Positions 3,949-21,554 of a DNA stretch of 24,461 bases are shown one piece after another. The notes beneath the pieces are model-generated. The model saw nothing but the letters and a program-made list of their open reading frames with translations. It was not told the DNA's origin and made no database searches. Origin of the DNA: a virus. Its lineage: Duplodnaviria > Heunggongvirae > Uroviricota > Caudoviricetes. A program made the position numbers and the translations under genes. Location of the stretch: the IMG/VR virus record IMGVR_UViG_2541047952_000002; one strand, written 5' to 3'. Every line of letters begins with the position of its first letter. Within the stretch, counting starts at the first letter, position 1.

Positions 3949-4802
3949 GCACCATCCTGAAATGGGCGGGAAATAAAACTGCCATAATGTCCGAACTGAA
4001 AAAACATCTTCCTGCTGGCCCGCGACTGGTTGAACCTTTCGCGGGTTCCTGTGCTGTGATGATGGAGACGGATTATCCCAGCTATCTGGTTGCGGATATT
4101 AATCCTGATTTAATCAACATCTATAAAAAGGTTGCCGCTGATTGTGAATCGTTTATATCTCGCGCCAGAGTTTTATTTAAGGAAGCAAACAGGGAGGTGG
4201 CTTATTACAACATAAGGCAGGAGTTTAATTACTCAACTGAAATTACTGATTTCATGAAAGCGGTATATTTCCTGTATCTCAATCGTCACGGTTACCGTGG
4301 TTTATGTCGCTATAACAAGAGCGGGCATTTCAACATTCCCTACGGTAATTATAAAAATCCGTATTTCCCTGAAAAAGAAATTCGCGCATTTGCAGAAAAG
4401 GCCCAGCGAGCAACGTTTATCTGCGCCAGCTTTGATGAAACGCTGGCGATGTTGAAGGCGGGGGATGTGGTGTATTGCGATCCGCCGTATGACGGTACGT
4501 TTTCCGGCTATCACACTGACGGCTTCACTGAAGATGACCAGTATCACCTGGCATCTGTTCTTGAACATCGGTCATCAGAAGGACATCCGGTCATTGTTTC
4601 TAACAGTGACACATCCCTGATCCGTTCGCTGTATCGCAATTTTACTCACCACTACATCAAGGCAAAACGCAGCATCGGTGTGGCAGCTGGCGAGGGTAAA
4701 TCAGCAACAGAAATCATTGCTGTTTCCGGGCCGCGCTGCTGGGTGGGATTTGATTATTCGCGTGGCGTGGATAGTTCTGCCGTGTACGGAGTACGTGCAT
4801 GA
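3945..4802 (+). CDS. dam: DNA adenine methyltransferase, Dam-like (N6-adenine MTase; GATC specificity inferred)
   Basis: ORF 3885..4802 trimmed to ATG 3945 (GGAGG 6 nt upstream, overlaps preceding stop). Motifs 'LKWAGNK', 'EPFAGS' (AdoMet binding), '[16 protein letters not shown]', 'PYFPE', 'FAEKAQ', 'VVYCDPPY' (catalytic DPPY), 'VSNSDT' are collinear with E. coli Dam as I recall it. Confidence 0.85.
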
Positions 4803-7213
4803 GTCATGCCGATATGAACAACTGCTGCGGCTTTAACGAAGCTGCCGCATCGTTCTCATGGAACAGCCCGAAAAAGGCCATTAACCCTTATCTGGACCCG
4901 GTGGAAGTTGCGCCGGTTTCTACGCTTTCAAACCTGATCACTCTGTACGCTGCCGATAACGAGCAGGAACAGCTGCGCCGTGAGGCGCTGAGTGATCAGG
5001 TCTGGGAGCGTTATTTCTTTAATGAATCCCGTGATCCTGTCCAGCGCGAAATGGAACAGGATAAGCTCATTAGTCGGGCAAAGCTGGCGCATGAGCAGCA
5101 GCGTTTTAATCCGGATATGGTCATTCTGGCGGACGTCAACGCCCAGCCCTCCCATATCAGCAAGCCGCTGATGCAACGTATTGAATATTTCAGCAGCCTG
5201 GGCAGGCCAAAGGCTTATTCCCGCTATTTGCGTGAGACGATTAAGCCATGTCTGGAACGACTGGAGCATGTCCGCGACTGTCAGCTATCCACTTCTTTTC
5301 GCTTTATGGCAAGCCATGAAGGGCTGGATGGCCTGCTTATCCTGCCTGAAATGAGTCAGGATCAGGTGAAGCGCCTGTCTACCCTTGTCGCTGCGCATAT
5401 GAGCATGTGCCTTGATGCCGCTTGTGGTGATTTGTATGCCACCGATGACGTTAAGCCAGAGGAAATCCGCAAAACATGGGAAAAGGTGGCAGCGGAAACC
5501 CTGCGTCTGGATGTTATTCCGCCTGCGTTTGAGCAACTCCGTCGGAAAAGAAACCGCCGTAAACCCGTGCCCTATGAACTCATTCCGGGTTCGTTGGCGC
5601 GTATGTTGTGTGCCGACTGGTGGTATCGGAAATTATGGAAGATGCGTTGCGAATGGCGGGAAGAGCAGTTGCGTGCTGTCTGCCTGGTCAGCAAAAAAGC
5701 ATCCCCCTATGTCAGCTATGAAGCCGTGATGCATAAACGTGAGCAGCGCCGTAAGTCGCTGGAGTTTTTCCGTTCTCATGAACTGGTGAACGAAGACGGC
5801 GACACGCTGGATATGGAAGATGTGGTAAACGCCAGCAGCAGCAACCCGGCGCATCGCCGCAATGAGATGATGGCCTGTGTTAAAGGTCTGGAGCTTATCG
5901 CGGAAATGCGCAGTGACTGCGCCGTTTTCTACACTATCACCTGTCCGTCGCGTTTCCATTCCACGCTCAATAACGGCAGACCCAACCCGACCTGGACAAA
6001 CTCGACGGTAAGACAAAGCAGCGACTATCTGGTCGGCATGTTTGCTGCATTTCGTAAGGCGATGCACAAAGCCGGATTGCGCTGGTATGGCGTGCGGGTG
6101 GCTGAGCCGCATCATGACGGTACAGTTCACTGGCACCTGTTGTGTTTTATGCGCAAAAAAGACCGCCGCGCCATCACTGCATTACTGCGTAAGTTTGCCA
6201 TCCGTGAAGACCGCGAGGAGCTGGGCAATAACACTGGGCCGCGCTTTAAGTCTGAGTTGATTAACCCGCGCAAAGGAACGCCGACAAGCTACATCGCGAA
6301 ATATATCAGTAAGAACATTGACGGGCGTGGTCTGGCTGGCGAGATCAGCAAGGAAACGGGTAAATCTCTGCGTGATAACGCTGAATACGTTAATGCCTGG
6401 GCGTCTCTGCATCGTGTTCAGCAATTCCGCTTCTTTGGCATTCCGGGGCGTCAGGCTTACCGTGAACTGCGATTGCTGGCTGGTCAGGCGGCAAGGCAAC
6501 AGGGTGACAAAAAAGCAGGTGCTCCGGTACTGGATAACCCGCGCCTTGATGCCATTCTGGCTGCTGCTGATGCTGGCTGTTTTGCCACCTACATTATGAA
6601 GCAGGGCGGCGTGTTGGTTCCCCGCAAATATCACTTGATCAGAACCGCTTATGAAATCAACGAAGAGCCGACCGCCTATGGCGATCACGGCATTCGTATT
6701 TATGGCATCTGGTCACCCATTGCAGAGGGCAAGATCTGCACTCATGCAGTGAAGTGGAAAATGGTTCGTAAGGCCGTTGACGTTCAGGAGGCGGCAGCCG
6801 ACCAGGGCGCTTGCGCCCCTTGGACTCGTGGCAATAACTGTCCCCTTGCTGAAAATTTGTACCAACAAGGGAAAGACAAATCAGCTGATGGAGATACCAG
6901 AACGGATATCACCCGCATGGATGACAAGGAGTTGCACGATTACCTGCACAGTATGAGCAAAAAAGAGCGCCGGGAACTGGCTGCAAGGTTACGCCTGGTG
7001 AAACCGAAACGGCGTAAAGACTACAAACAGCGAATTACAGACCATCAGCGACAGCAGCTCGTCTATGAACTGGAGTCCAGAGGATTTAATGGCAGCGAGA
7101 AAGAGGTCGATTTACTCCTTCGCGGCGGCAGTATTCCGTCAGGAGCAGGTCTGCGTATCTTCTATCGGAACCAGCGTTTGCAGGAAGATGATAAGTGGCG
7201 AAACCTGTATTAA
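4799..7213 (+). CDS. A: Replication initiation endonuclease gpA (HUH rolling-circle initiator)
   Basis: 804 aa. Start ATG overlaps dam stop (ATGA). HUH motif '[15 protein letters not shown]' and catalytic tyrosine motif '[11 protein letters not shown]' as in P2 A. Confidence 0.9.
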
Positions 7214-7366: not shown

Positions 7367-7555
7367 ATGCAGGACTATTTTTTGGAGTCTTTGAAGCTCC
7401 AGCGCATTGATTTTTTTCTTAAGCTTGTAGCGGCTAGTGAGTGTAGTGATGAAGAGAAGGGGCTGGCTTTGCAGTGGGTTTCTGAACTGACAGATGAACT
7501 CATGGCAAAAATCAGAAGCCACGAATACAACCGCTCAATGGATGTCATCAGCTGA
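7367..7555 (+). CDS. Hypothetical small protein (62 aa), first gene of the LexA-controlled module; possible Tum-like antirepressor component
   Basis: ORF 7265..7555 trimmed to ATG 7367 preceded by GGAGGA. Position downstream of gene A and behind a LexA box parallels 186 tum. No motif recognised. Confidence 0.4.
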   Translation: MQDYFLESLKLQRIDFFLKLVAASECSDEEKGLALQWVSELTDELMAKIRSHEYNRSMDVIS

Positions 7556-7565
7556 GGGGACTTTT

Positions 7566-7799
7566 ATGCGCATTGAAATAATGATCGATAAAGAGCAGAA
7601 GATTAGCCAGTCTACCCTGGACGCCCTTGAATCCGAGCTTTACCGCAATCTGCGCCCCCTGTATCCCAAAACGGTAATTCGTATCCGTAAAGGTAGCTCT
7701 AACGGTGTGGAACTGACCGGACTGCAACTGGACGAAGAAAGGAAGCAAGTGATGAAAATTATGCAGAAGGTGTGGGAAGACGACAGCTGGCTGCATTAA
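7566..7799 (+). CDS. dinI: DinI-family protein
   Basis: ORF 7494..7799 trimmed to ATG 7566 (GAGGGGA upstream). 'MRIEIMIDKEQKISQSTLDALESELYRNL...' and C-terminal 'KVWEDDSWL' resemble E. coli DinI ('MRIEVTIAK...TWESADDWF'). Confidence 0.7.
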   Translation: MRIEIMIDKEQKISQSTLDALESELYRNLRPLYPKTVIRIRKGSSNGVELTGLQLDEERKQVMKIMQKVWEDDSWLH

Positions 7800-7912: not shown

Positions 7913-8332
7913 CTATAAATTAGTTTTTATTAGATAGTGCCTTTGTGCTCCTGCTTTAGGGAAATCAGGTAATGACATTTGAAGTATATAACCCTGTTTT
8001 TCATAAAAGGGGAGCGCCTGGAAGCTAAATGTATCGACAAGGCCATGAATACAACCGTTCATCACACCTTCTTTCTCAGCCATGCTCATAAGTTTGCTAC
8101 CCAAACCGCCACTCCGTGTTGATTCACTCACCCAAAGATAATCAATACACAGCCATGGGCCTTTCCTGTTCGCAATTAATCCACCTACCATCTCGCCGAT
8201 TTCATTTCTGCAGTAAACACCGATCTGTCCATTTTTACTAAAATCGATAAACTGAGCATTATAGCTTCTTAGCCCAGCTAACAGTTCTTCTCTATCATAT
8301 TCAGTAACTTTATTAACTACTTGAATGTCCAT
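7913..8332 (-). CDS. GNAT-family N-acetyltransferase (139 aa), cargo gene
   Basis: Acetyl-CoA-binding-type motif '[17 protein letters not shown]' (R/Q-x-x-G-x-G/A), then 'FYEKQGY'. AT-rich, opposite strand to neighbours. Confidence 0.7.
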
Positions 8333-8680: not shown

Positions 8681-8803
8681 CGCGCACGTGGCTTCTAGAC
8701 ATATATCAGAGGCTTTGTTTCAATCGTAATTTATTAAATTGATTATGTTTGAATGATTTGTCATATTCTATAAGTGTTCAAGATGGCAATAAGAGGTGTC
8801 TTA

Positions 8804-10405
8804 ATGTTTGAAATTCCGAAGGCTGATGGTTCTAGCTTTGAATTGAAGTTGGCTCCTGGAGAGGTTGTTTTCTTGTTAGGACCAAATGGTTCCGGAAAGT
8901 CTTCTATAATTGATTTTCTATACAAAAAATATCCTAATAGATTTGAGAAAATAATTGCGCATAGACAAAATTGGATTCAGTCTAACAGATCTAACGTATC
9001 CAATCATGAGAGTCATCAAACATCAGGTTATATTAAGAGTTGGGATTCGCAGGAGGAGTCAAGATACAAAGATGATTATTCCGGTCGTAGAACAGAGATC
9101 TTACTGAACAAAATAATCTCTGCAGAGAATCATGCAGCCAGAACTTTTGTCAATAATTTCTCCCTAGCTTCTCGCGAGGGGCGTGGTAATTTAACTCTTA
9201 CGGAAACACCAGTTGAGAAAATTAATAGATGCCTGAATGAAGCTTTTATTAATATTACGATAAGAATAGATGATTCGGATTCTTTGTTGGTAAGTCGCAA
9301 TGGCTCTGATGAATATAGCTTGGCTCAGCTTTCTGACGGAGAAAGAAATGCAATATTTATTGCAATTGCCATTTTTACAGCCCCAGACGGCGCCTTTTTT
9401 TTAATCGATGAGCCAGAGAGGCATTTGCATCCTTCAATATCTCATTCGTTGATTAAATCTCTTTTAAATGAGCGCCCCGATTGTGGATATGTAATATCCA
9501 CACATGATTTATCTTTGCCATCAGCAGTACCTCATTCCAGAGTGTTGTTGCTGAGAGATTGCGTGTATGAAAATATGCGACCAGTTCGTTGGTATATAGA
9601 CGCAATTGACTCATTGGCGGAAATTGATGAGAGGCTTCGAGAAGACATACTTGGGTCAAGGAAAAAAATAATCTTTGTTGAGGGTAATACATCATCAAGC
9701 TTAGACCAGAAGCTATACTCGATAATTTTTCCAGGTTATTCGGTAATACCAAAAGCTAGTTGCGATTATGTCGAGCGTTCTGTGGATGGTCTGAGAGAGT
9801 CGGAAAATCTTCATCATGTAATTCCATATGGTATTATTGATAATGATAATAAACCTGAACGACAGGTTTCAAATCTTGAAATGAAAGGGGTTTATTCTTT
9901 AAATGTGCACTCAATTGAATCAATATACTATCATCCGGAATTAATTTTAAACGTAATTAATAATTATAAGGATTCTCAAAATATATCGGACCCCGATGCA
10001 TTATATGCGCAGTTGTGTGACGAGTCATTGTCCATGCTTTCCGAGCACAAAGAAAGACTATGCTGTAGAGCAATAGAGAAAGCCATTAGGTCTAAGCTAT
10101 TTTCGAATTTGCCAACTTTGAGAAGTATTGAAGCGGGGAATGATGTTAATATAAATATTAACGTTGGTGATTTTTTGAGAGAAGAAATTGTCTTTTTTGA
10201 AAACTGTCTACGTCAGCAAGATCTCATCAGTTTAGTCGAAAAATATCCAATTCGTGAAACTGCTTATATCGCTAAGGTGCATAAGCTATTGGGGTATTCA
10301 ACGCGTCAACTTTACGAGCATAATCTTTTACGCCTTGTAACGTCGAATTCTGAGGTGAAAAATATTGCCAAAAGGCTGATTGGCAATATTTGCAATGTTA
10401 TATGA
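8804..10405 (+). CDS. Solitary ABC-type ATPase fused to a Toprim-like nuclease domain (OLD-family / PARIS AriAB-like candidate anti-phage protein)
   Basis: ORF 8774..10405 (GTG) trimmed to ATG 8804, 7 nt after AAGAGG. Walker A 'GPNGSGKS', ABC signature-like 'LSDGERN', Walker B plus His 'FFLIDEPERHLHPS'. C-terminal half has 'KKIIFVEGNTSS' (Toprim glutamate) and 'GIIDNDNK' (DxD). Strongly AT-rich. Confidence 0.8.
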   Translation: MFEIPKADGSSFELKLAPGEVVFLLGPNGSGKSSIIDFLYKKYPNRFEKIIAHRQNWIQSNRSNVSNHESHQTSGYIKSWDSQEESRYKDDYSGRRTEILLNKIISAENHAARTFVNNFSLASREGRGNLTLTETPVEKINRCLNEAFINITIRIDDSDSLLVSRNGSDEYSLAQLSDGERNAIFIAIAIFTAPDGAFFLIDEPERHLHPSISHSLIKSLLNERPDCGYVISTHDLSLPSAVPHSRVLLLRDCVYENMRPVRWYIDAIDSLAEIDERLREDILGSRKKIIFVEGNTSSSLDQKLYSIIFPGYSVIPKASCDYVERSVDGLRESENLHHVIPYGIIDNDNKPERQVSNLEMKGVYSLNVHSIESIYYHPELILNVINNYKDSQNISDPDALYAQLCDESLSMLSEHKERLCCRAIEKAIRSKLFSNLPTLRSIEAGNDVNININVGDFLREEIVFFENCLRQQDLISLVEKYPIRETAYIAKVHKLLGYSTRQLYEHNLLRLVTSNSEVKNIAKRLIGNICNVI

Positions 10406-11474: not shown

Positions 11475-13237
11475 AAAATCTCCACAATGTTGCTGGTATT
11501 GGCGGCTTCGCCCTGAAGCGGTTCGTTAAACAGTGCGTGCATCGTTGCCCAGGCCAAGTCTGCGTGGCTGGCTTCTTCACTGCGGCTGGCTTCGTATGTA
11601 GGGCGGTTTCCGCTGGCGGTAGTGGCGCGGCGGATAGCCATAAAGGACTGCGCAATGTCGGTGTGTCCCGCGTCAAACTCCAGACGCCGGTGGCTGATAA
11701 TGTCGTATGCCTTGAGCACCAGGGCGTTTTTGACGTTGGGGTTGTAGACAAACTCCCGCACAGCAGGAAAGAACGCTTTCACGTTCTCGTAGACACCGTG
11801 ACCGACGCCGGTTGAGTCGATACCGATATAGGTCACGTTGTACTGCTGCGTCAGCTTTTTGATAGCGTCCGCCTGGGCGCGGAAGTCCATCCCGCGCCAC
11901 TGGTGCCGCTCAAGAATGCGGAACTTGCCGCCCGGTACGGTTGGTGGTGCGACCACCACGCACCCGGCGCTGTCACCGTTCTGCGTGCCTTTCGCCGGGT
12001 CGTATCCGATCCAGACTTCGCGCCAGCCAAACGGGCGCAGCGCCAGCGCCTGAAAATCGGACCACACTTCCCAACTGTCCACCATGCACGCCTGCAGCTC
12101 GCTGAGCGGAAACACGGACGCGAGATCGTCCACAAACTCGCACATCAGCAGGTTCTGGTATTCGTCCGGGCTGTACTCCATGCGCAACTGGTCAAGGTCG
12201 AACAGGTTACAGCCGCCGCGCACCGCATCTTCCACGGTGACTATCTGGCGGTATTGCCCGTCTGCGCACAGCAGGCCGGGGGCCAGATTGCTGTGGGACA
12301 GGTCGATGTCCACCTTGTCGGCCTTGTTGCGCCCACGGTTGAACAGCGCACCGGACCAGAACGGATAAGCACTGTGTGTCAGGCTGGATGGCGTGGAAAA
12401 ATAGGTCTGTCGCCATTTCTTGTGAATAGCCATACCGGAAGCCACTTTGCGCAGCTCCTGGAATTTCGGTATCCAGAAATATTCATCCAGATACAGGTTG
12501 CCGTGATAACTCTGGGCCGTGCGGGCATTGGTGCCGAGGAAGTAAAGCGTGGCCCCGTTGGGAAGCACCATCGGATCACCTTTCAGCTCCACCTCCACTT
12601 CTTTGGCGAAGTCGATGATGTACTGCTTAAAGACGTGGGCCTGTGCCTTGCTTGCGGAAAGGAAAATCTGGTTACGTCCGGTCAGCAGAGCGTCAATCAG
12701 GGCTTCACGGGCAAAATAGAAGGTCGCGCCGATCTGGCGTGACTTCAACAGGTTGCGGATGCGGTTGGTTTTTCCGGCTTCCCACCAGTGGCGCTGGTAG
12801 TTGAACATGGAGGAATGGAAGATTTCTTCCAGCTTCTCAATCTGTTCATCGGTGAAAACGTTCTTTTCCGGCTGACGGCGCGGGCCTTTGTTGCGGTTGG
12901 CGACGTTAGGGTTTAAGTCGGCTTCGTTGCCGCCATTGTTAAACTTGCCGATCCGCGCATGGCGCTCCGACTGGCGCGCCAGCAGGTCAATCTCTTTGAA
13001 ATCTTTCCCTTCTTTGTGCTCCTTCATAATGAGCTGGCAGTAGCGTGCGGCGGTGGTGAGCTGCATCTGATCCAGCGGCCCATAGTCACCCCACTTGTCG
13101 CGTTTTTTCCAGCTGTGAACGGTTGCAACTTTCTCGCCCAGCATTTCAGCAATGCGGGCTACGCGGTATCCCTGAAAGTACAGCAGCATGGCCTGCCGAC
13201 GGGGATCGAGATCTGCGGGTGTCAGTGTGGTGTTCAT
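11471..13237 (-). CDS. P: Terminase large (ATPase) subunit gpP
   Basis: 588 aa, upstream of and translationally coupled to Q. Position and size match P2 P (~590 aa). Confidence 0.88.
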   Translation of the reverse strand: MNTTLTPADLDPRRQAMLLYFQGYRVARIAEMLGEKVATVHSWKKRDKWGDYGPLDQMQLTTAARYCQLIMKEHKEGKDFKEIDLLARQSERHARIGKFNNGGNEADLNPNVANRNKGPRRQPEKNVFTDEQIEKLEEIFHSSMFNYQRHWWEAGKTNRIRNLLKSRQIGATFYFAREALIDALLTGRNQIFLSASKAQAHVFKQYIIDFAKEVEVELKGDPMVLPNGATLYFLGTNARTAQSYHGNLYLDEYFWIPKFQELRKVASGMAIHKKWRQTYFSTPSSLTHSAYPFWSGALFNRGRNKADKVDIDLSHSNLAPGLLCADGQYRQIVTVEDAVRGGCNLFDLDQLRMEYSPDEYQNLLMCEFVDDLASVFPLSELQACMVDSWEVWSDFQALALRPFGWREVWIGYDPAKGTQNGDSAGCVVVAPPTVPGGKFRILERHQWRGMDFRAQADAIKKLTQQYNVTYIGIDSTGVGHGVYENVKAFFPAVREFVYNPNVKNALVLKAYDIISHRRLEFDAGHTDIAQSFMAIRRATTASGNRPTYEASRSEEASHADLAWATMHALFNEPLQGEAANTSNIVEIF

Positions 13238-13283
13238 GGCACAAACCTACAGCCTTGAATGAAGGCTTTCCCCGCCTGCGGTT

Positions 13284-13301
13284 TGTGTGGTTGTCGGTAC
13301 A
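13284..13301. promoter_or_regulatory. Candidate late-promoter activator (Ogr/B) binding site, TGT-N12-ACA, in the P/O divergent region
   Basis: TGTGTGGTTGTCGGTACA lies ~80 bp upstream of the O start. P2-family late promoters carry a TGT-N12-ACA dyad near -55. Confidence 0.4.
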
Positions 13302-17978: not shown

Positions 17979-18372
17979 AGCGGTGCCTTATGTCCGCAAT
18001 AACCCGGACAAACTGCATCTGTTTGTGGATAACGGTTCGCTGGTTGCTACGGGGGCCAGCTCCATGTCATGGGAGTACCGTTACACCCTGAACGTGGTGA
18101 TTGAGGATTTCAGCGGCGACCAGAATCTGCTGATGGCCCCGGTTTTGCTGTGGCTGCGGGATAACCAGCCCGATGCCATCAATAACCCGGCGTTACGGGA
18201 AAAACTATTTACCTTTGAGGTGGATATTCTGCGCAACGATGTCTGTGATATCAGCCTTAACCTGCAACTGACGGAACGTGTGCTGGTCAGCACTGACGGC
18301 AGTGTGTCGAGCGTTGAAGCGGTAGCAGAACCCGATGAACCTGAAGAAATGTGGACGGTGAAACGTGGCTGA
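17941..18372 (+). CDS. R: Tail completion protein gpR
   Basis: ORF 17920..18372 (TTG) trimmed to GTG 17941, 7 nt after AGGAG. 'SLRHALNKAV...LHLFVDNGSLVAT...YRYTLNVVIEDFSGD' resembles P2 R. Confidence 0.75.
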   Translation: MNKPQSLRHALNKAVPYVRNNPDKLHLFVDNGSLVATGASSMSWEYRYTLNVVIEDFSGDQNLLMAPVLLWLRDNQPDAINNPALREKLFTFEVDILRNDVCDISLNLQLTERVLVSTDGSVSSVEAVAEPDEPEEMWTVKRG

Positions 18373-18811
18373 ACTGCAGAAGGTGGACGACTGGCTTAGT
18401 GCCTTACTGGCGAATCTGGAACCAGTCGCAAGAAGCCGCATGATGCGCCAGCTGGCGCAGGAACTGCGCCGGACACAGCAGCAGAATATCAGGATGCAGC
18501 GCAATCCAGATGGCAGCAGTTATGAACCGCGCAAGGTCACGGCGCGCAGTAAAAAAGGCCGCATCAAACGTCAGATGTTTGCAAAGCTGCGCACCACCAA
18601 ATACCTGAAAACCGCCGCCAGCGCCGACTCTGCCTGCATACAGTTTGAAAGTAAGGTGCAGCGCATTGCCCGCGTTCACCATTATGGCCTGCGCGATCGC
18701 GTCAGCCGCAAAGGACCGGAAGTGCGTTACGCAGAGCGTCGTTTACTTGGAATGAATGAATATGCAGAAAATATAGTAAAAGATATATTGTTTCAGTTGC
18801 TAATAAAATGA
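18365..18811 (+). CDS. S: Tail completion protein gpS
   Basis: 148 aa (P2 S ~150), overlaps R stop. Position as P2 S. Confidence 0.8.
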   Translation: MAELQKVDDWLSALLANLEPVARSRMMRQLAQELRRTQQQNIRMQRNPDGSSYEPRKVTARSKKGRIKRQMFAKLRTTKYLKTAASADSACIQFESKVQRIARVHHYGLRDRVSRKGPEVRYAERRLLGMNEYAENIVKDILFQLLIK

Positions 18812-18976
18812 TGTGACTAAACCACATCATTTATTGCTGACTGAAAACCACGTCCTTTGGGCGTGGTCATCAACTGGTTTTGGCTCTACCTTATTGCCTT
18901 TGAATTTAAATGTTACAAAACTGGCAGTGGATTCTTTTTAAAGGTTTTGGTGCGCCCTTTTAGGATGTAATCAATA

Positions 18977-19001
18977 CCGCCTTCTTAGAAGGCGGGTTTT
19001 T
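18977..19001. terminator. Rho-independent terminator (bidirectional) between S and the HNH gene
   Basis: CCGCCTTCT-T-AGAAGGCGG stem-loop followed by GTTTTT. It lies 5 nt from the HNH gene stop on the other strand. Further AT-rich hairpins occur at 18808-18830 and 18846-18866. Confidence 0.55.
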
Positions 19002-19005
19002 ACTA

Positions 19006-19659
19006 CTAATCCATAAATGGTTCAAGAATTGGACCTAATTCAGCATCTTCCATAATGATCCATCTGCAAAATGATGAAAAAGCTGCGTCTCTTTTTATCA
19101 TCATCTTCATTTTTTCAATTAAGTATTTTTTTTGTTCTGTTGGAGTATCTTCTTCATAATATTCATTAATATTTTTAATTAGTTTTTGGGTTGTTTTCAC
19201 TACTTGAGTACGAAGTGCCGCAGAAGTTAATTTTTTACTCATGGTATGATCGCTATTATATACTTTCTCAAGTAACTCTGCGGTCGTCTGCGTTTCAATA
19301 TCATTAAATAGTGCTGTTACTGTTATTTTTTTTGCTTTATAAGAATATCCTGGGAGTAATTTTACTCGATCCCATACCTTTTCTTTACAGCAATCAAGAA
19401 TGTTGTCATATTTTGATAGTTTTATATTGTTACATCTGGAACATGATAGATATAAATTATCCCAATCAAAAGCTCTTTCCACATCATCACCCTTGGGTTT
19501 AAAATGTTCAATGTTTATATCCAAAGGGTTCTTTGTTTCGCAAATGTAACATTTTCCATAAAAGCATTCCTGTAGTGCTTCATGTACATCAGCACCATCA
19601 TAACGTGCTTTCTTGGAAAGAGACTTTGGTGCAGGATATGTTCTATTAACCTTGAACAT
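19006..19659 (-). CDS. HNH endonuclease (217 aa), second gene of an ATPase + HNH pair (Septu PtuB-like)
   Basis: HNH-type motif 'CYICETKNPLDINIEHFKPK...FDWDNLYLSCSRCNNIK' (C-x2-C ... H ... N ... C-x2-C-N). Start ATG overlaps the upstream ATPase stop by 1 nt (TAATG). Very AT-rich. Confidence 0.8.
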   Translation of the reverse strand: MFKVNRTYPAPKSLSKKARYDGADVHEALQECFYGKCYICETKNPLDINIEHFKPKGDDVERAFDWDNLYLSCSRCNNIKLSKYDNILDCCKEKVWDRVKLLPGYSYKAKKITVTALFNDIETQTTAELLEKVYNSDHTMSKKLTSAALRTQVVKTTQKLIKNINEYYEEDTPTEQKKYLIEKMKMMIKRDAAFSSFCRWIIMEDAELGPILEPFMD

Positions 19660-20888
19660 TATTTCTCCTGAGAATTTGCTTTTTTATATTTTAGTATCTG
19701 CATTTTTGCATAGTCAATAAATGCACTTGCATGGATGTCCATGGATTCATCTAAAGGTGCTAAGGATTGTATTATGTTATTGGCAGTTTCAATATTGTTG
19801 TTGTTAATATTGTCAATAATATCTTGAAGTTGTTCTAACTTATCTGAAAGAACTTTAGATATTGGACTTACTCCGAATAATTCTTGAAGGATGATACCAT
19901 AAGAATATGAAGACACATCACTAATTTTCGCGTTGGTCGATAGATCATAAATGATGGCATTTGTGACGGATGTAACAACAAACGGAGAATGTGTAGTGAC
20001 AATGAATTGTACTTTAGGAAAGGAGTGACTAAAAAATCTTAATATTTGCTTTTGCAAAGAAACATGTAAATGCGCATCTATTTCATCAATAAAAATAATA
20101 CCTTCGATACTGTCAGGTGTTAAACCCCACATTTCTACTCTCATTATTAAGTCAGCGTAAATTCTCAATATTGATGAGTGGCCAGAAGATAATGTTTGAA
20201 AAGTAAACTTATCTTTACCATCTTGATTGAGATAAAATTTTCCTTCGTTACTATCAAACGTTAGTAAGAGGTTTTTATCTTCAAAAAGTTCCTGCATATC
20301 AGTTTCAATTTTATCAAACCATTTCTGTATCCGCTGAGCTTTCTTATGGTCATTATCAAAAGAAATTGCATAGCTCTGAGCTGTTTTTAAACTAACCAAA
20401 TAATTCTCAAAGAAATCATCACCATCTACTTCATTAGAAAAATGTGATTTTTCATTAATTAAAGCCGATAGCCTAGGAACGGCAATTGGCGAGGTAATTG
20501 ATGCTTCACGTAGAGCTTTGTGAAATCTCAATAGTGAACGTGTTTCACCTTCTTTTTCTTTTGTTTCTATTCTAATGGCTTTTAATTGTTCAATTTTTAA
20601 TTCAATGTTTTTTATTTCTTCAGAATAAAAGTTGTAATTAACGTCGTCACGCCCGCCGTTATTTAAGTGATATTTGTAGGACTCTAACGTATTGTATAAA
20701 TTATTGATGTTATGATCATTAGGTCTATCTATCTTATTTTTAAGGAAATCATAAATAGATCTAATAAAACTAGTTTTTCCACACCCGTTACCACCAGTTA
20801 TTATGAGATTTTTACCGTCAAGCAATAAGTTTGCTGTCTTATTAGTGTATGGAATTGGAGCATAAATTTCATTTATTGATGTAAGCAT
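19659..20888 (-). CDS. ABC-type (AAA_15/AAA_21-like) ATPase (410 aa), first gene of an ATPase + HNH pair (Septu PtuA-like)
   Basis: ORF 19659..20987 trimmed to ATG at 20886-20888 (AAGGGA 7 nt upstream); the longer form would overlap the V start. Walker A 'GGNGCGKTS', 'LSSGHSSIL', Walker B plus His 'IIFIDEIDAHLHVS', 'FIVTTHSPF'. Confidence 0.8.
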   Translation of the reverse strand: MLTSINEIYAPIPYTNKTANLLLDGKNLIITGGNGCGKTSFIRSIYDFLKNKIDRPNDHNINNLYNTLESYKYHLNNGGRDDVNYNFYSEEIKNIELKIEQLKAIRIETKEKEGETRSLLRFHKALREASITSPIAVPRLSALINEKSHFSNEVDGDDFFENYLVSLKTAQSYAISFDNDHKKAQRIQKWFDKIETDMQELFEDKNLLLTFDSNEGKFYLNQDGKDKFTFQTLSSGHSSILRIYADLIMRVEMWGLTPDSIEGIIFIDEIDAHLHVSLQKQILRFFSHSFPKVQFIVTTHSPFVVTSVTNAIIYDLSTNAKISDVSSYSYGIILQELFGVSPISKVLSDKLEQLQDIIDNINNNNIETANNIIQSLAPLDESMDIHASAFIDYAKMQILKYKKANSQEK

Positions 20889-20897
20889 ATATTCCCT

Positions 20898-20915
20898 TGT
20901 ATCGTTAACAGTACA
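20898..20915 (+). promoter_or_regulatory. Candidate PV late-promoter Ogr/B box (TGT-N12-ACA)
   Basis: TGTATCGTTAACAGTACA lies ~60 bp upstream of the V start, with an A/T-rich -10 candidate (GATAATAAT) downstream. It starts 10 bp from the PtuA-like start codon on the opposite strand. Confidence 0.45.
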
Positions 20916-20975
20916 ACTACAACACTGATAATAATACAACTTATTGAGATACAGTTCACCTTTAAGGGGGGAAGG

Positions 20976-21554
20976 GTGAACGCACAATTAACCGAAATCA
21001 TGCGCCTTATCACCAACCTGATCCGCACTGGGGTAGTCACCGAAGTGGACAGGGAAAACTGGCTTTGCCGAGTGAAAACGGGCGAGCTTGAAACTAACTG
21101 GATCAGTTGGCTGACGCTGCGTGCAGGAAATGCCCGGACATGGTGGCGACCATCGGAAGGTGAGCAGGTGGTGCTGCTGAGTCTGGGGGGCAATCTGGAA
21201 ACGGCCTTTGCGCTGCCCGCTGTCTATTCGAATCAGTTTGCGCCACCGTCGACGTCGGCGGACGCCTGTGTGACAGAATATCCTGACGGTGGCTGGTTTG
21301 AATACGAACCTGCCACCGGGCGCTGGTATGTCAGGGGCATCAAATCCATGGTCATTGAGGCTGCCGATAACATCACCCTGAAAACCAGTGAGTTTGTGCT
21401 GGAGGCTGACCGCACGCGTATTAACAGCGAAGTGGTGATCAATGGTGGCGTTACCCAGGGCGGCGGAGCGATGAGCTCTAACGGGATTGTGGTTGATGCG
21501 CATCAGCATACTGGCGTCCTGAAAGGCGGCGATACAACCGGAGGCCCGGTATGA
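20976..21554 (+). CDS. V: Baseplate spike/assembly protein gpV
   Basis: 192 aa, GTG start with AAGGGGGG RBS. 'WLTLRAGNARTWWRPSEGEQV' and 'HQHTG...GGDTTGGP' resemble P2 V. Confidence 0.85.
   Translation: MNAQLTEIMRLITNLIRTGVVTEVDRENWLCRVKTGELETNWISWLTLRAGNARTWWRPSEGEQVVLLSLGGNLETAFALPAVYSNQFAPPSTSADACVTEYPDGGWFEYEPATGRWYVRGIKSMVIEAADNITLKTSEFVLEADRTRINSEVVINGGVTQGGGAMSSNGIVVDAHQHTGVLKGGDTTGGPV

Follow-up and report, generated by a model that had tools for sequence, protein, structure and literature searches.

Septu was defined in 2018 and is known from hotspots in phages and their satellites. Its two proteins, the ABC ATPase PtuA and the HNH nuclease PtuB, have been described in Escherichia coli both as a stand-alone pair and as part of retrons. 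Rousset et al. listed Septu in the P4 hotspot (PMC9122126). Structural work describes a helix bundle formed by PtuA's C-terminal extension (CTE) and the C-terminal domain (CTD) of PtuB, and purified PtuAB nicks supercoiled DNA, an activity that is inhibited by ATP in the stand-alone system (PMC12819146). A stand-alone Septu of E. coli cleaves tRNA-Tyr in its variable loop and acts by abortive infection, effects abolished by Walker A/B and HNH mutations (PMC13096335). Depletion of tRNA-Tyr during infection has been seen in vivo with two E. coli PtuAB systems (PMC13096335, PMC12673091), and in the view of the authors of the structural work the nicking observed in vitro is possibly tied to tRNA targeting in vivo via unidentified factors (PMC12819146). 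The subject of the present analysis is a pair of minus-strand genes, ptuA and ptuB, situated between the tail-completion gene S and the baseplate gene V in a stretch of viral DNA of 24,461 nucleotides (IMG/VR record IMGVR_UViG_2541047952_000002; Caudoviricetes), referred to throughout as the window. With a probability of roughly 85%, the pair is a stand-alone type I Septu anti-phage system, acquired horizontally as a "moron" by a P2-like prophage, in its S-V (orf30) slot. By sequence and predicted fold, each protein belongs over its full length to its family, PtuA or PtuB, and has intact catalytic motifs; anti-phage activity and the substrate of the nuclease are presumed by homology.

The ptuA-ptuB pair and its family assignment

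PtuA matches the PADLOC PtuA model PDLC00268 with E=1.5e-138, residues 2-404 aligning with positions 2-409 of the 411-position profile, and is recognized in Pfam as AAA_21 (6e-19) and AAA_15 (6e-12). The Walker A (G32-K38-T39), signature (L233-S234-x-G236), Walker B (D268-E269) and H-loop (H300) motifs are each invariant in an alignment of 44 sequences. The next-best PADLOC models outside Septu are the retron I-A ATPase (3.5e-32) and AriA (2.4e-23), and the NCBIfam retron PtuA model is matched at 98.5 bits against a cut-off of 500. Searched against the PDB as a sequence, PtuA finds Septu and type I-A retron PtuA chains nearest (E about 1e-14 to 1e-11), over the C-terminal ATPase lobe only; searched as a profile, it reaches E-values of 1e-22 to 1e-18, with PtuA chains leading the list and accounting for 12 of the 18 matches. 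An AlphaFold2 (AF2) model built from the 44-homologue alignment, with a predicted local distance difference test (pLDDT) score of 82, retrieved PtuA chains exclusively among its best 50 Foldseek matches in the PDB, at template modelling (TM) scores of 0.36-0.51 and identities of 14-18%, drawn from the Septu structures 8EE4, 8EEA and 8SUX and from the Ec78/Eco7 and Ec83 retrons.

PtuB likewise matches its PADLOC model, PDLC00321, over its entire length (E=5e-100; residues 1-217 on positions 1-223 of 223), and is recognized by the Pfam HNH family at 1.2e-5. It is comprised of an N-terminal ββα-metal core (CxxC...H52...N68...CxxC-N77) followed by a helical C-terminal domain, and residues C37, C40, E51, H52, N68, C73, C76 and N77 are invariant in an alignment of 46 sequences. 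The best PADLOC model outside Septu is the retron I-A HNH protein (1.3e-11), PHROGs returns additional weak matches to "HNH endonuclease" families, and the retron-type PtuA and PtuB models of NCBIfam are matched weakly, far under their cut-offs. Because sequence searches were too weak to connect PtuB with its solved counterparts (no PDB match for the single sequence; weak matches, to PtuB chains only, at E 0.015-0.46 for a four-sequence profile), this link needed structure prediction and Foldseek. The AF2 model (pLDDT 93, built from the 46-homologue alignment) has nine PDB matches with E<=1e-4, all of them PtuB chains aligned over their full length at TM 0.56-0.61, and the next match stands at E=0.5.

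The E-values of both family assignments, 1e-138 and 1e-100, rule chance far out. Neither protein contains a TOPRIM or DUF4435 domain in Pfam searches, and PtuA is without a nuclease domain of any kind in them. The list of open reading frames (ORFs) holds no reverse transcriptase between S and V or nearby, and it is this absence that makes the pair a stand-alone type I Septu; Rfam, too, found no retron or other RNA family at its gathering or E-value thresholds. In sequence, motifs, ptuA-then-ptuB gene order, folds and stand-alone state the pair is that of Septu type I. It lacks the adjacent reverse transcriptase and non-coding RNA of a type I-A retron, as well as the PtuA of ~540-550 aa with N-terminal extension and helical flap, and equally the TOPRIM or DUF4435 domain, fused or partnered, of PARIS, Gabija and OLD systems; nor is it the solitary HNH gene, free of an obligate ATPase partner, that would be expected of a homing endonuclease. 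A first-pass annotation, made from the sequence of the window alone, had taken the combination of ATPase and HNH protein as the gene content of Septu, and this proposal is borne out by full-length PADLOC matches for both proteins and by model folds that match only solved PtuA and PtuB chains.

That annotation had further supposed that both proteins fall at the short end of the known range and might represent a divergent variant, a view that the databases do not sustain. Dedicated PADLOC models of 411 (PtuA) and 223 (PtuB) positions exist for the short clade. PtuA has more than 1,000 homologues at E<=1e-10, the best-scoring among the matches listed being mostly 405-420 aa, from hosts that include Enterobacterales, Vibrio, Photobacterium, Aeromonas, Shewanella and Pseudomonas; PtuB has more than 300 at E<=1e-5, mostly 214-228 aa among the matches listed. 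PHROGs already holds both proteins as phage families of unknown function. The window pair is thus a member of a populous short clade and not an odd variant.

The pairing of the two genes is kept well beyond E. coli. A Cronobacter P2-like prophage carries ptuAB at 70% identity in the same slot and orientation, a Klebsiella integrative and conjugative element (ICE) carries it at 57% identity adjoining integrase and TraD/MobA genes, and a Vibrio island with resolvases carries it at 42% identity. ptuB directly follows ptuA in these three loci (L006, L007 and L010, respectively) and in nearly all of 60 full-length IMG/VR loci. The pair is therefore seen travelling together in prophages, ICEs and genomic islands, and in many hosts and elements the two genes of the clade have stayed intact and paired, over a range of identity from 99% to about 35%. 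The INPHARED phage collection contains no genome with this PtuA clade.

A variable slot between S and V

The interval 18812-20975 is the exact gap between the stop codon of gpS and the GTG start codon of gpV; apart from 194 nt of non-coding DNA, it consists of ptuA and ptuB (Table 1). The ORF listing gives two minus-strand frames here, 19659..20987 and 19006..19659, the former being a 442-aa frame with a TTG start that overlaps the V start. This longer frame was rejected as a mechanical extension: the PADLOC profile aligns from residue 2 of the ATG-initiated protein, and RefSeq annotates the same 1230-nt gene, beginning at ATG 20888, in an identical E. coli locus. The ATPase gene of the first-pass annotation accordingly stands, its product being 409 aa in length and not the 410 aa given there. 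The stop of ptuA and the start of ptuB overlap as TAATG at 19659, with GGAG 7-8 nt upstream of the ptuB ATG, and the two genes are therefore translationally coupled, as had been remarked. All of the motifs then quoted are present in the ORF translations, both those of the ATPase (GGNGCGKTS, IIFIDEIDAHLHVS and TTHSPF) and those of the HNH protein (CYICE, IEHFKPK, WDNL and CSRCNN).

The strong AT bias noted earlier is equally evident. Guanine-plus-cytosine (GC) content is 0.31-0.34 over approximately 18750-20975 compared to 0.53-0.60 in the flanks (31-33% for ptuA and ptuB, 53-60% for gpS and gpV), and its fall begins within S, ~60 nt before the gene's 3' end. In composition the cargo is foreign to the backbone of the phage. 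E. coli NZ_LR882493 has a 100% identical cassette, flanked there by genes annotated "virion morphogenesis protein" and "baseplate assembly protein V". As to its source, the window is from a P2-like (Peduoviridae, Wadgaonvirus-like) prophage of E. coli.

Table 1. Features of the S-V interval and its flanking genes, in window coordinates
Feature	Coordinates	Strand	Description
gpS	18365..18811	+	Tail completion / virion morphogenesis, left flank; PHROG phrog_26 tail completion, E=1.9e-45; RefSeq "phage virion morphogenesis protein"
Non-coding structured element	18829..19000	+	~170 nt, S stop to ptuB stop; hairpin 1 at 18855-18876 and terminator hairpin
Bidirectional intrinsic terminator	18977..18995	both	Common to the convergent S operon and ptuAB
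ptuB	19006..19659	-	HNH nuclease, 217 aa
A8 homopolymer in ptuB	19326..19333	-	Codons ~108-111
ptuA	19659..20888	-	ABC/OLD-type ATPase, 409 aa, 1230 nt
TGT-N12-ACA dyad, Ogr/B-type late-activator box of PV	20898..20915		9 nt upstream of ptuA ATG
Candidate ptuAB promoter (inferred)	20931..20959	-	-10-like TATTAT 20931-20936; weak -35-like GTGAAC 20954-20959; 17-nt spacer
PV core (inferred)	20950..20975	+	-10 TACAGT 20950-20955; predicted start ~20962; Shine-Dalgarno GGGGGGAAGG just before V GTG
gpV	20976..21554	+	Baseplate assembly / spike, right flank; PHROG baseplate assembly protein; RefSeq annotation

The S-V interval is a true hotspot, a fixed position between core genes that is empty or alternatively filled in relatives. 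Escherichia phage 500465-1 (genus Wadgaonvirus), Klebsiella phage 4LV2017 and their relatives have flanks 95-96% identical to those of the window and only 68 bp between S and V. A survey of 5,426 complete E. coli genomes identified 1,054 with a closely related S-V region, and the cargo was read in a spread sample of 60 rows. The slot is empty in about 33 of these; the remainder are filled, mostly but not always on the minus strand, with genes for DUF6216, AIPR, PARIS AriA and AriB, GmrSD, SIR2, TIR (disrupted by IS1), PcfJ, FRG, other ATPases and hypothetical proteins. Both the empty site and the alternative defence cargo are as anticipated earlier, when the genes were read as a defence cassette taken up at a phage hotspot. 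From its size and position, DUF6216 (annotated in 7 of the 60 rows) seems to be orf30-like cargo. The Septu cassette itself occurs in 13 of the ~1,054 genomes, and since exactly 13 genomes cover at least 80% of the S-cassette-V query, all of the copies lie in the S-V slot. In IMG/VR, PtuAB is found between V and S in 17 loci, as alleles of 99%, 62-72% and 37-41% identity, and the R, S, V and W flanks around them remain 53-99% identical; such diversity within conserved flanks shows the repeated swapping of Septu alleles at one site.

The first-pass annotation held that P2 has no gene in this interval, but P2 carries S, a terminator, the non-essential minus-strand orf30 (261 aa), the PV activator site and V in this order, thus with the same architecture. 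The ORF at the orf30 position was remarked as variable among P2-like phages in an earlier genome note (PMC6823313), and in a 2026 preprint the positions given for defence systems are "downstream of GpL" and "within the late genes", with S-V unnamed (bioRxiv 10.64898/2026.02.27.708500). The A-Q and Z/fun hotspots of P2 are well described (PMC9122126, PMC9519451, bioRxiv 10.1101/2024.10.15.618418); across these three sources and the 2026 preprint, S-V is not named as a defence hotspot.

The junctions were placed by alignment with the empty-site, Klebsiella phage Kp4865-2 and P2 versions of the locus. On the left, homology ends inside S, after its ...RRLLG codons (from ~18750), and the last ~20 residues of gpS vary with the cargo, the AT-rich C-terminal tail reading ...RRLLGMNEYAENIVKDILFQLLIK in the window compared to ...RRLLGIAEKEQSFIFYTLISWLQ in Kp4865-2. 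As this tail is replaced at each exchange of the slot, it is by implication functionally tolerant. On the right, homology with the empty-site phages resumes exactly at the V start codon. The exchanged module thus includes, besides the cargo, the S 3' end, the bidirectional terminator and the whole of the PV promoter. No terminal inverted repeats bound the cassette. The sole flanking direct repeat, of 13 nt with 12 of 13 positions matching (18827-18839 and 20869-20881), was dismissed as a target-site repeat, for part of it falls within ptuA and, by estimate, AT-rich DNA would yield such a match by chance. The S terminator hairpin described earlier as bounding the cassette is present as a GC-rich hairpin that scores as a terminator on both strands; its 8-bp stem holds 6 GC pairs and is followed by a T-run on the plus strand and by TATTGATT on the minus strand.

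The ~170-nt element of which this terminator forms a part has a wider distribution of its own. About 20 further E. coli genomes contain copies of it, 69-83% identical and in unrelated intergenic locations; these include an 83% copy between a murR/rpiR regulator and a porin gene, a 75% copy between yoaC and a fimbrial operon, and a 69% copy adjoining a SIR2 gene in the A-Q hotspot of another P2-like phage. Its plus strand has a predicted RNA fold (z=-3.6) of two hairpins, the second being the shared terminator, and it has no match in Rfam. The Cronobacter S-V Septu locus lacks the element, which is hence not integral to Septu; it could be a small RNA, an element resembling miniature inverted-repeat transposable elements or a portable terminator.

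Other occupants and other slots came to light in the same comparisons. Klebsiella phage Kp4865-2 fills its S-V slot with a plus-strand gene (L005, 1518-3029) for a 503-aa P-loop protein that has no Pfam match and a marginal one to PADLOC PDC-M28C (E=0.0085), and this protein is a candidate for an uncharacterized defence gene. Distant Septu alleles (33-37% PtuA identity) are located in the A-Q hotspot of P2-like phages, at 4001-5864 of locus L075, between the replication protein A and portal genes, and at 4001-5888 of L062, directly upstream of the portal gene; the same Septu family thus uses both the A-Q and the S-V hotspots of P2. The A-Q (old/tin) hotspot of the window prophage itself is occupied at 8774-10405 (+) by a fused PARIS AriAB of 543 aa with ABC ATPase and DUF4435 regions (PADLOC PDLC02982, E=8e-58; 35-39% GC), beside which lie genes for a GNAT acetyltransferase, 7913-8332 (-), and a DinI-like protein, 7494-7799 (+). 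With PARIS in A-Q and Septu in S-V, one prophage carries both systems.

The late promoter and expression of ptuAB

The insertion had been described as leaving the late promoter of V, PV, intact. The PV sequence instead travels with the cargo, the whole segment from the S stop to the V start differing between cargo versions, and what is kept is its geometry, namely a TGT-N12-ACA-like dyad in each version with a box centre about 55 nt upstream of the predicted start. In the window the dyad is centred at 20906.5, 55.5 nt upstream of the predicted PV start, and the same distance from activator site to V start is annotated in P2. The candidate Ogr box was correctly located beside ptuA in the first-pass annotation, at a distance that is here 9 nt rather than 10 bp. 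This spacing between dyad and ptuA ATG is exact in 15 of 16 S-V Septu loci (62-99% clade), in which the half-sites are kept and the N12 varies. The ptuA Shine-Dalgarno sequence (AAGAGGA or AAGGGA) abuts the ACA half-site, and the PV -10 block reads TACAGT, TATAGT or TAAAAT in related loci. The conserved 9-nt spacing may alternatively have its cause in shared ancestry and compaction. In the window as a whole TGT-N12-ACA occurs 5 times compared to 6.9 expected from shuffled sequence, a count not above chance, and the box is consequently identified by position and conservation only.

As the box and Shine-Dalgarno sequence lie directly at the ptuA start, a promoter for ptuAB must be sought beyond the box, inside PV. 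An AT-rich hexamer beginning with TA occupies a fixed position there in nine aligned loci (TATTAT in the window; TATATT and TATAAA), at 17-18 nt from a -35-like hexamer, and loci L027 and L031 read TTGACT-N18-TATAAA. A consensus sigma-70 scan returned no minus-strand promoter upstream of ptuA, the window candidate being missed because its -35 matches at only 3 of 6 positions. The alignment suggests a ptuAB promoter nested within PV. The candidate -35 would overlap with the opposite-strand -10 of PV, and the Ogr box would fall in the ptuA leader, such that use of the two promoters might be mutually exclusive.

A plus-strand sigma-70-like site that overlaps the box, TTAACA-16-GATAAT at 20905-20932 (10 of 12 positions), was also considered; it is not conserved in the Cronobacter locus and is probably due to chance. 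If real, it would allow V to be transcribed independently of the activator. In the window, the divergent intergenic region between P and O, where late promoters of the P2 type are expected, has two further dyads within it or at its edge, at 13226-13243 and 13284-13301. Dyads at 19534 and 19571, inside ptuB, look like chance occurrences. A search of the window with a P2 Ogr query gave no match, and the gene for the Ogr activator is expected at the other end of the prophage, outside the window.

Mechanism, alternatives and comparison with known systems

By analogy with the studied systems, PtuA would oligomerize in the lysogen, and its C-terminal helices would bind the helical C-terminal domain of PtuB and thereby keep the HNH nuclease restrained. 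Infection by a heterologous phage would release or activate the nuclease, and the activated PtuB would cut nucleic acid and arrest the infected cell, such that the spread of the phage fails. The best guess as to its substrate is host tRNA, following the tRNA-Tyr of the two E. coli systems studied in vivo. Transcription of ptuAB probably starts at the weak promoter nested in the Ogr-dependent PV and ends at the hairpin common to the S operon. In a more speculative and less likely extension, binding of an Ogr-type activator would turn on the baseplate operon and simultaneously shut off or roadblock ptuAB, and the resulting expression, on in lysogeny and off late, would spare the phage's own lytic cycle.

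A number of observations weigh against an active defence system at this locus. Alignment with NZ_CP063153 reveals that its ptuB has lost 1 nt from the A8 tract (A8 to A7), with a premature stop after residue 111 as a result, and the frameshifted gene is found in 4 of the 13 E. coli copies (the 2163-bp form, with split annotation). The truncation retains the HNH core and loses the helical C-terminal domain that binds PtuA, and the tract could be a mark of decay or a slippage-prone on/off site. A partial match to both ptuA and ptuB in IMG/VR locus L040 adds to these cases, and selection for ptuAB function is evidently not universal. The cassette is moreover rare, at about 1% of related prophages; the promoter scan described above was negative; and the nearest solved or characterized PtuA and PtuB are 14-18% identical to the window clade, making trigger, stoichiometry and substrate extrapolations. 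As a separate observation, IMG/VR locus L020 matches PtuB over its first 111 aa only, which is consistent with a similar truncation.

Cleavage of tRNA is favoured over the nicking of DNA, by analogy and with a weak hold that falls a little short of even odds. The same Septu with another chemistry, in which PtuB nicks or degrades phage or host DNA under the control of ATP, is possible yet doubtful. Stand-alone E. coli PtuAB (8EE4/8EEA) does nick DNA in vitro and is inhibited by ATP, and retron Ec78 PtuAB nicks supercoiled plasmid, both as summarized in PMC12819146, and the PtuB model fits chain 8EEA_G about as well as it fits the PtuBs of retrons. Both E. coli PtuAB systems studied in vivo, however, deplete tRNA-Tyr (PMC13096335, PMC12673091), a link between nicking and tRNA targeting through unidentified factors may exist (PMC12819146), and at 14-18% identity neither result transfers securely to the window clade.

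Explanations that depart further from a Septu defence system fare considerably worse. It is improbable that the pair is a passenger, either an addiction-like toxic pair that stabilizes the prophage or a functionless remnant: the frameshifted ptuB copies, the partial L040 match, the rarity of the cassette and the lack of a strong promoter in the consensus scan would all fit such a role, but the window copy is intact with every catalytic residue conserved, the intact pair persists from 99% to about 35% identity in many hosts and elements, and the same slot holds many recognized defence genes. A free-standing HNH homing endonuclease, which had been named beforehand as the kind of non-defence family to which the proteins might turn out to belong, is very improbable. 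Homing endonuclease genes of phages typically do lie between conserved essential genes, and an HNH motif and weak PHROGs matches to "HNH endonuclease" families are present here; PtuB is nevertheless accompanied by PtuA in the contexts examined, including those outside phages, its full-length fold, PtuA-binding helical domain included, has matches among PtuB chains only, the cassette is not invasive but rare, and its junctions lie in flanking homology (the S 3' end and the V start) with no target-site signature. Least tenable is a reading of the pair as type I-A retron effectors, or as an ATPase-nuclease pair of the PARIS, Gabija, OLD or AbiL type. Weak matches to the retron I-A ATPase, HNH and AriA models and the below-cut-off NCBIfam retron PtuA/PtuB matches are outweighed by the scores of the Septu models, better by over 100 orders of magnitude for PtuA and by some 88 for PtuB; a reverse transcriptase ORF is missing from a slot in which ptuA, ptuB and 194 non-coding nt leave no room for one, Rfam shows no retron or other RNA family, and PtuA has no TOPRIM or DUF4435 domain.

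The identification of a stand-alone Septu is correct, well supported and largely ordinary, a known system in a known kind of place: it adds one more case of prophages carrying bacterial immunity, in which Septu is recognized outright by existing hidden Markov models. Slightly fresher aspects are how rich a defence hotspot the S-V interval is, the inclusion of the S C-terminus and PV in the exchanged module, and the interlock between the ptuA start and the late-activator box. The more ambitious proposal, in which P2-like phages have in the S-V (orf30) slot a third or fourth defence hotspot that is under-described, exchange there the unit of S 3' end, terminator, cargo and PV promoter, and carry a Septu silenced by Ogr, is speculative and unlikely as a whole. 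If true, the interlock of cargo start and PV would let a temperate phage turn off its own defence by simple means late in lytic growth. The "hypothetical" cargo of the S-V slot offers a cheap hunting ground for new defence systems, and the short PtuAB clade could broaden the mechanistic picture of Septu.

Among known systems, the stand-alone E. coli PtuAB resolved in 8EE4, 8EEA and 8SUX shares with the window pair the two-gene ptuA-ptuB operon without retron components, a PtuA ABC ATPase without nuclease domain, a PtuB with HNH and helical C-terminal domains, and folds that the window models retrieve. It differs in sequence (14-17% identity) and in the length of PtuA, 465 aa compared to 409 aa, and its PDB sequence match to the window PtuA covers the C-terminal ATPase lobe only. 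The PtuA6:PtuB2 assembly and inhibition by ATP are features of the solved E. coli system, as cited in PMC12819146, and would hold for the window clade by extrapolation. Septu Ec-B88 from E. coli JBBDAGI-19-0041 is also a stand-alone E. coli system, in which both the ATPase and HNH motifs are required and abortive infection proceeds by cleavage of the tRNA-Tyr variable loop (PMC13096335); the in vivo model favoured above follows it. Its motif residues are K43/D316 and H75/N91, whereas those of the window are K38/D268 and H52/N68, a difference in numbering that indicates a longer, different PtuA/PtuB subfamily for Ec-B88.

PtuAB of the retrons Eco7/Ec78 and Ec83 provides the best PDB sequence and fold matches for both window proteins and shares the architecture of PtuA CTE and PtuB CTD (PMC12819146), but these systems need a reverse transcriptase, a non-coding RNA and msDNA, a multicopy single-stranded DNA, and their PtuA, at 542-552 aa, bears N-terminal and helical-flap insertions. 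PARIS (AriA/AriB) resembles the window pair in joining an ABC ATPase with a nuclease-like effector, and in occupying the same S-V slot in other E. coli prophages; its effector is DUF4435/TOPRIM-like instead of HNH, and the window PtuA scores 1.5e-138 with its own family compared to 2.4e-23 with AriA. In P2 itself, orf30 occupies the same slot in the same layout of S, terminator, minus-strand AT-rich cargo, PV activator site and V, although the cargo is unrelated (orf30 is DUF6216, phrog_2407, with no defence or Pfam match). The S-V slot thereby follows the same logic as the accessory hotspots of P2, namely old/tin between A and Q, Z/fun and tail-CI.

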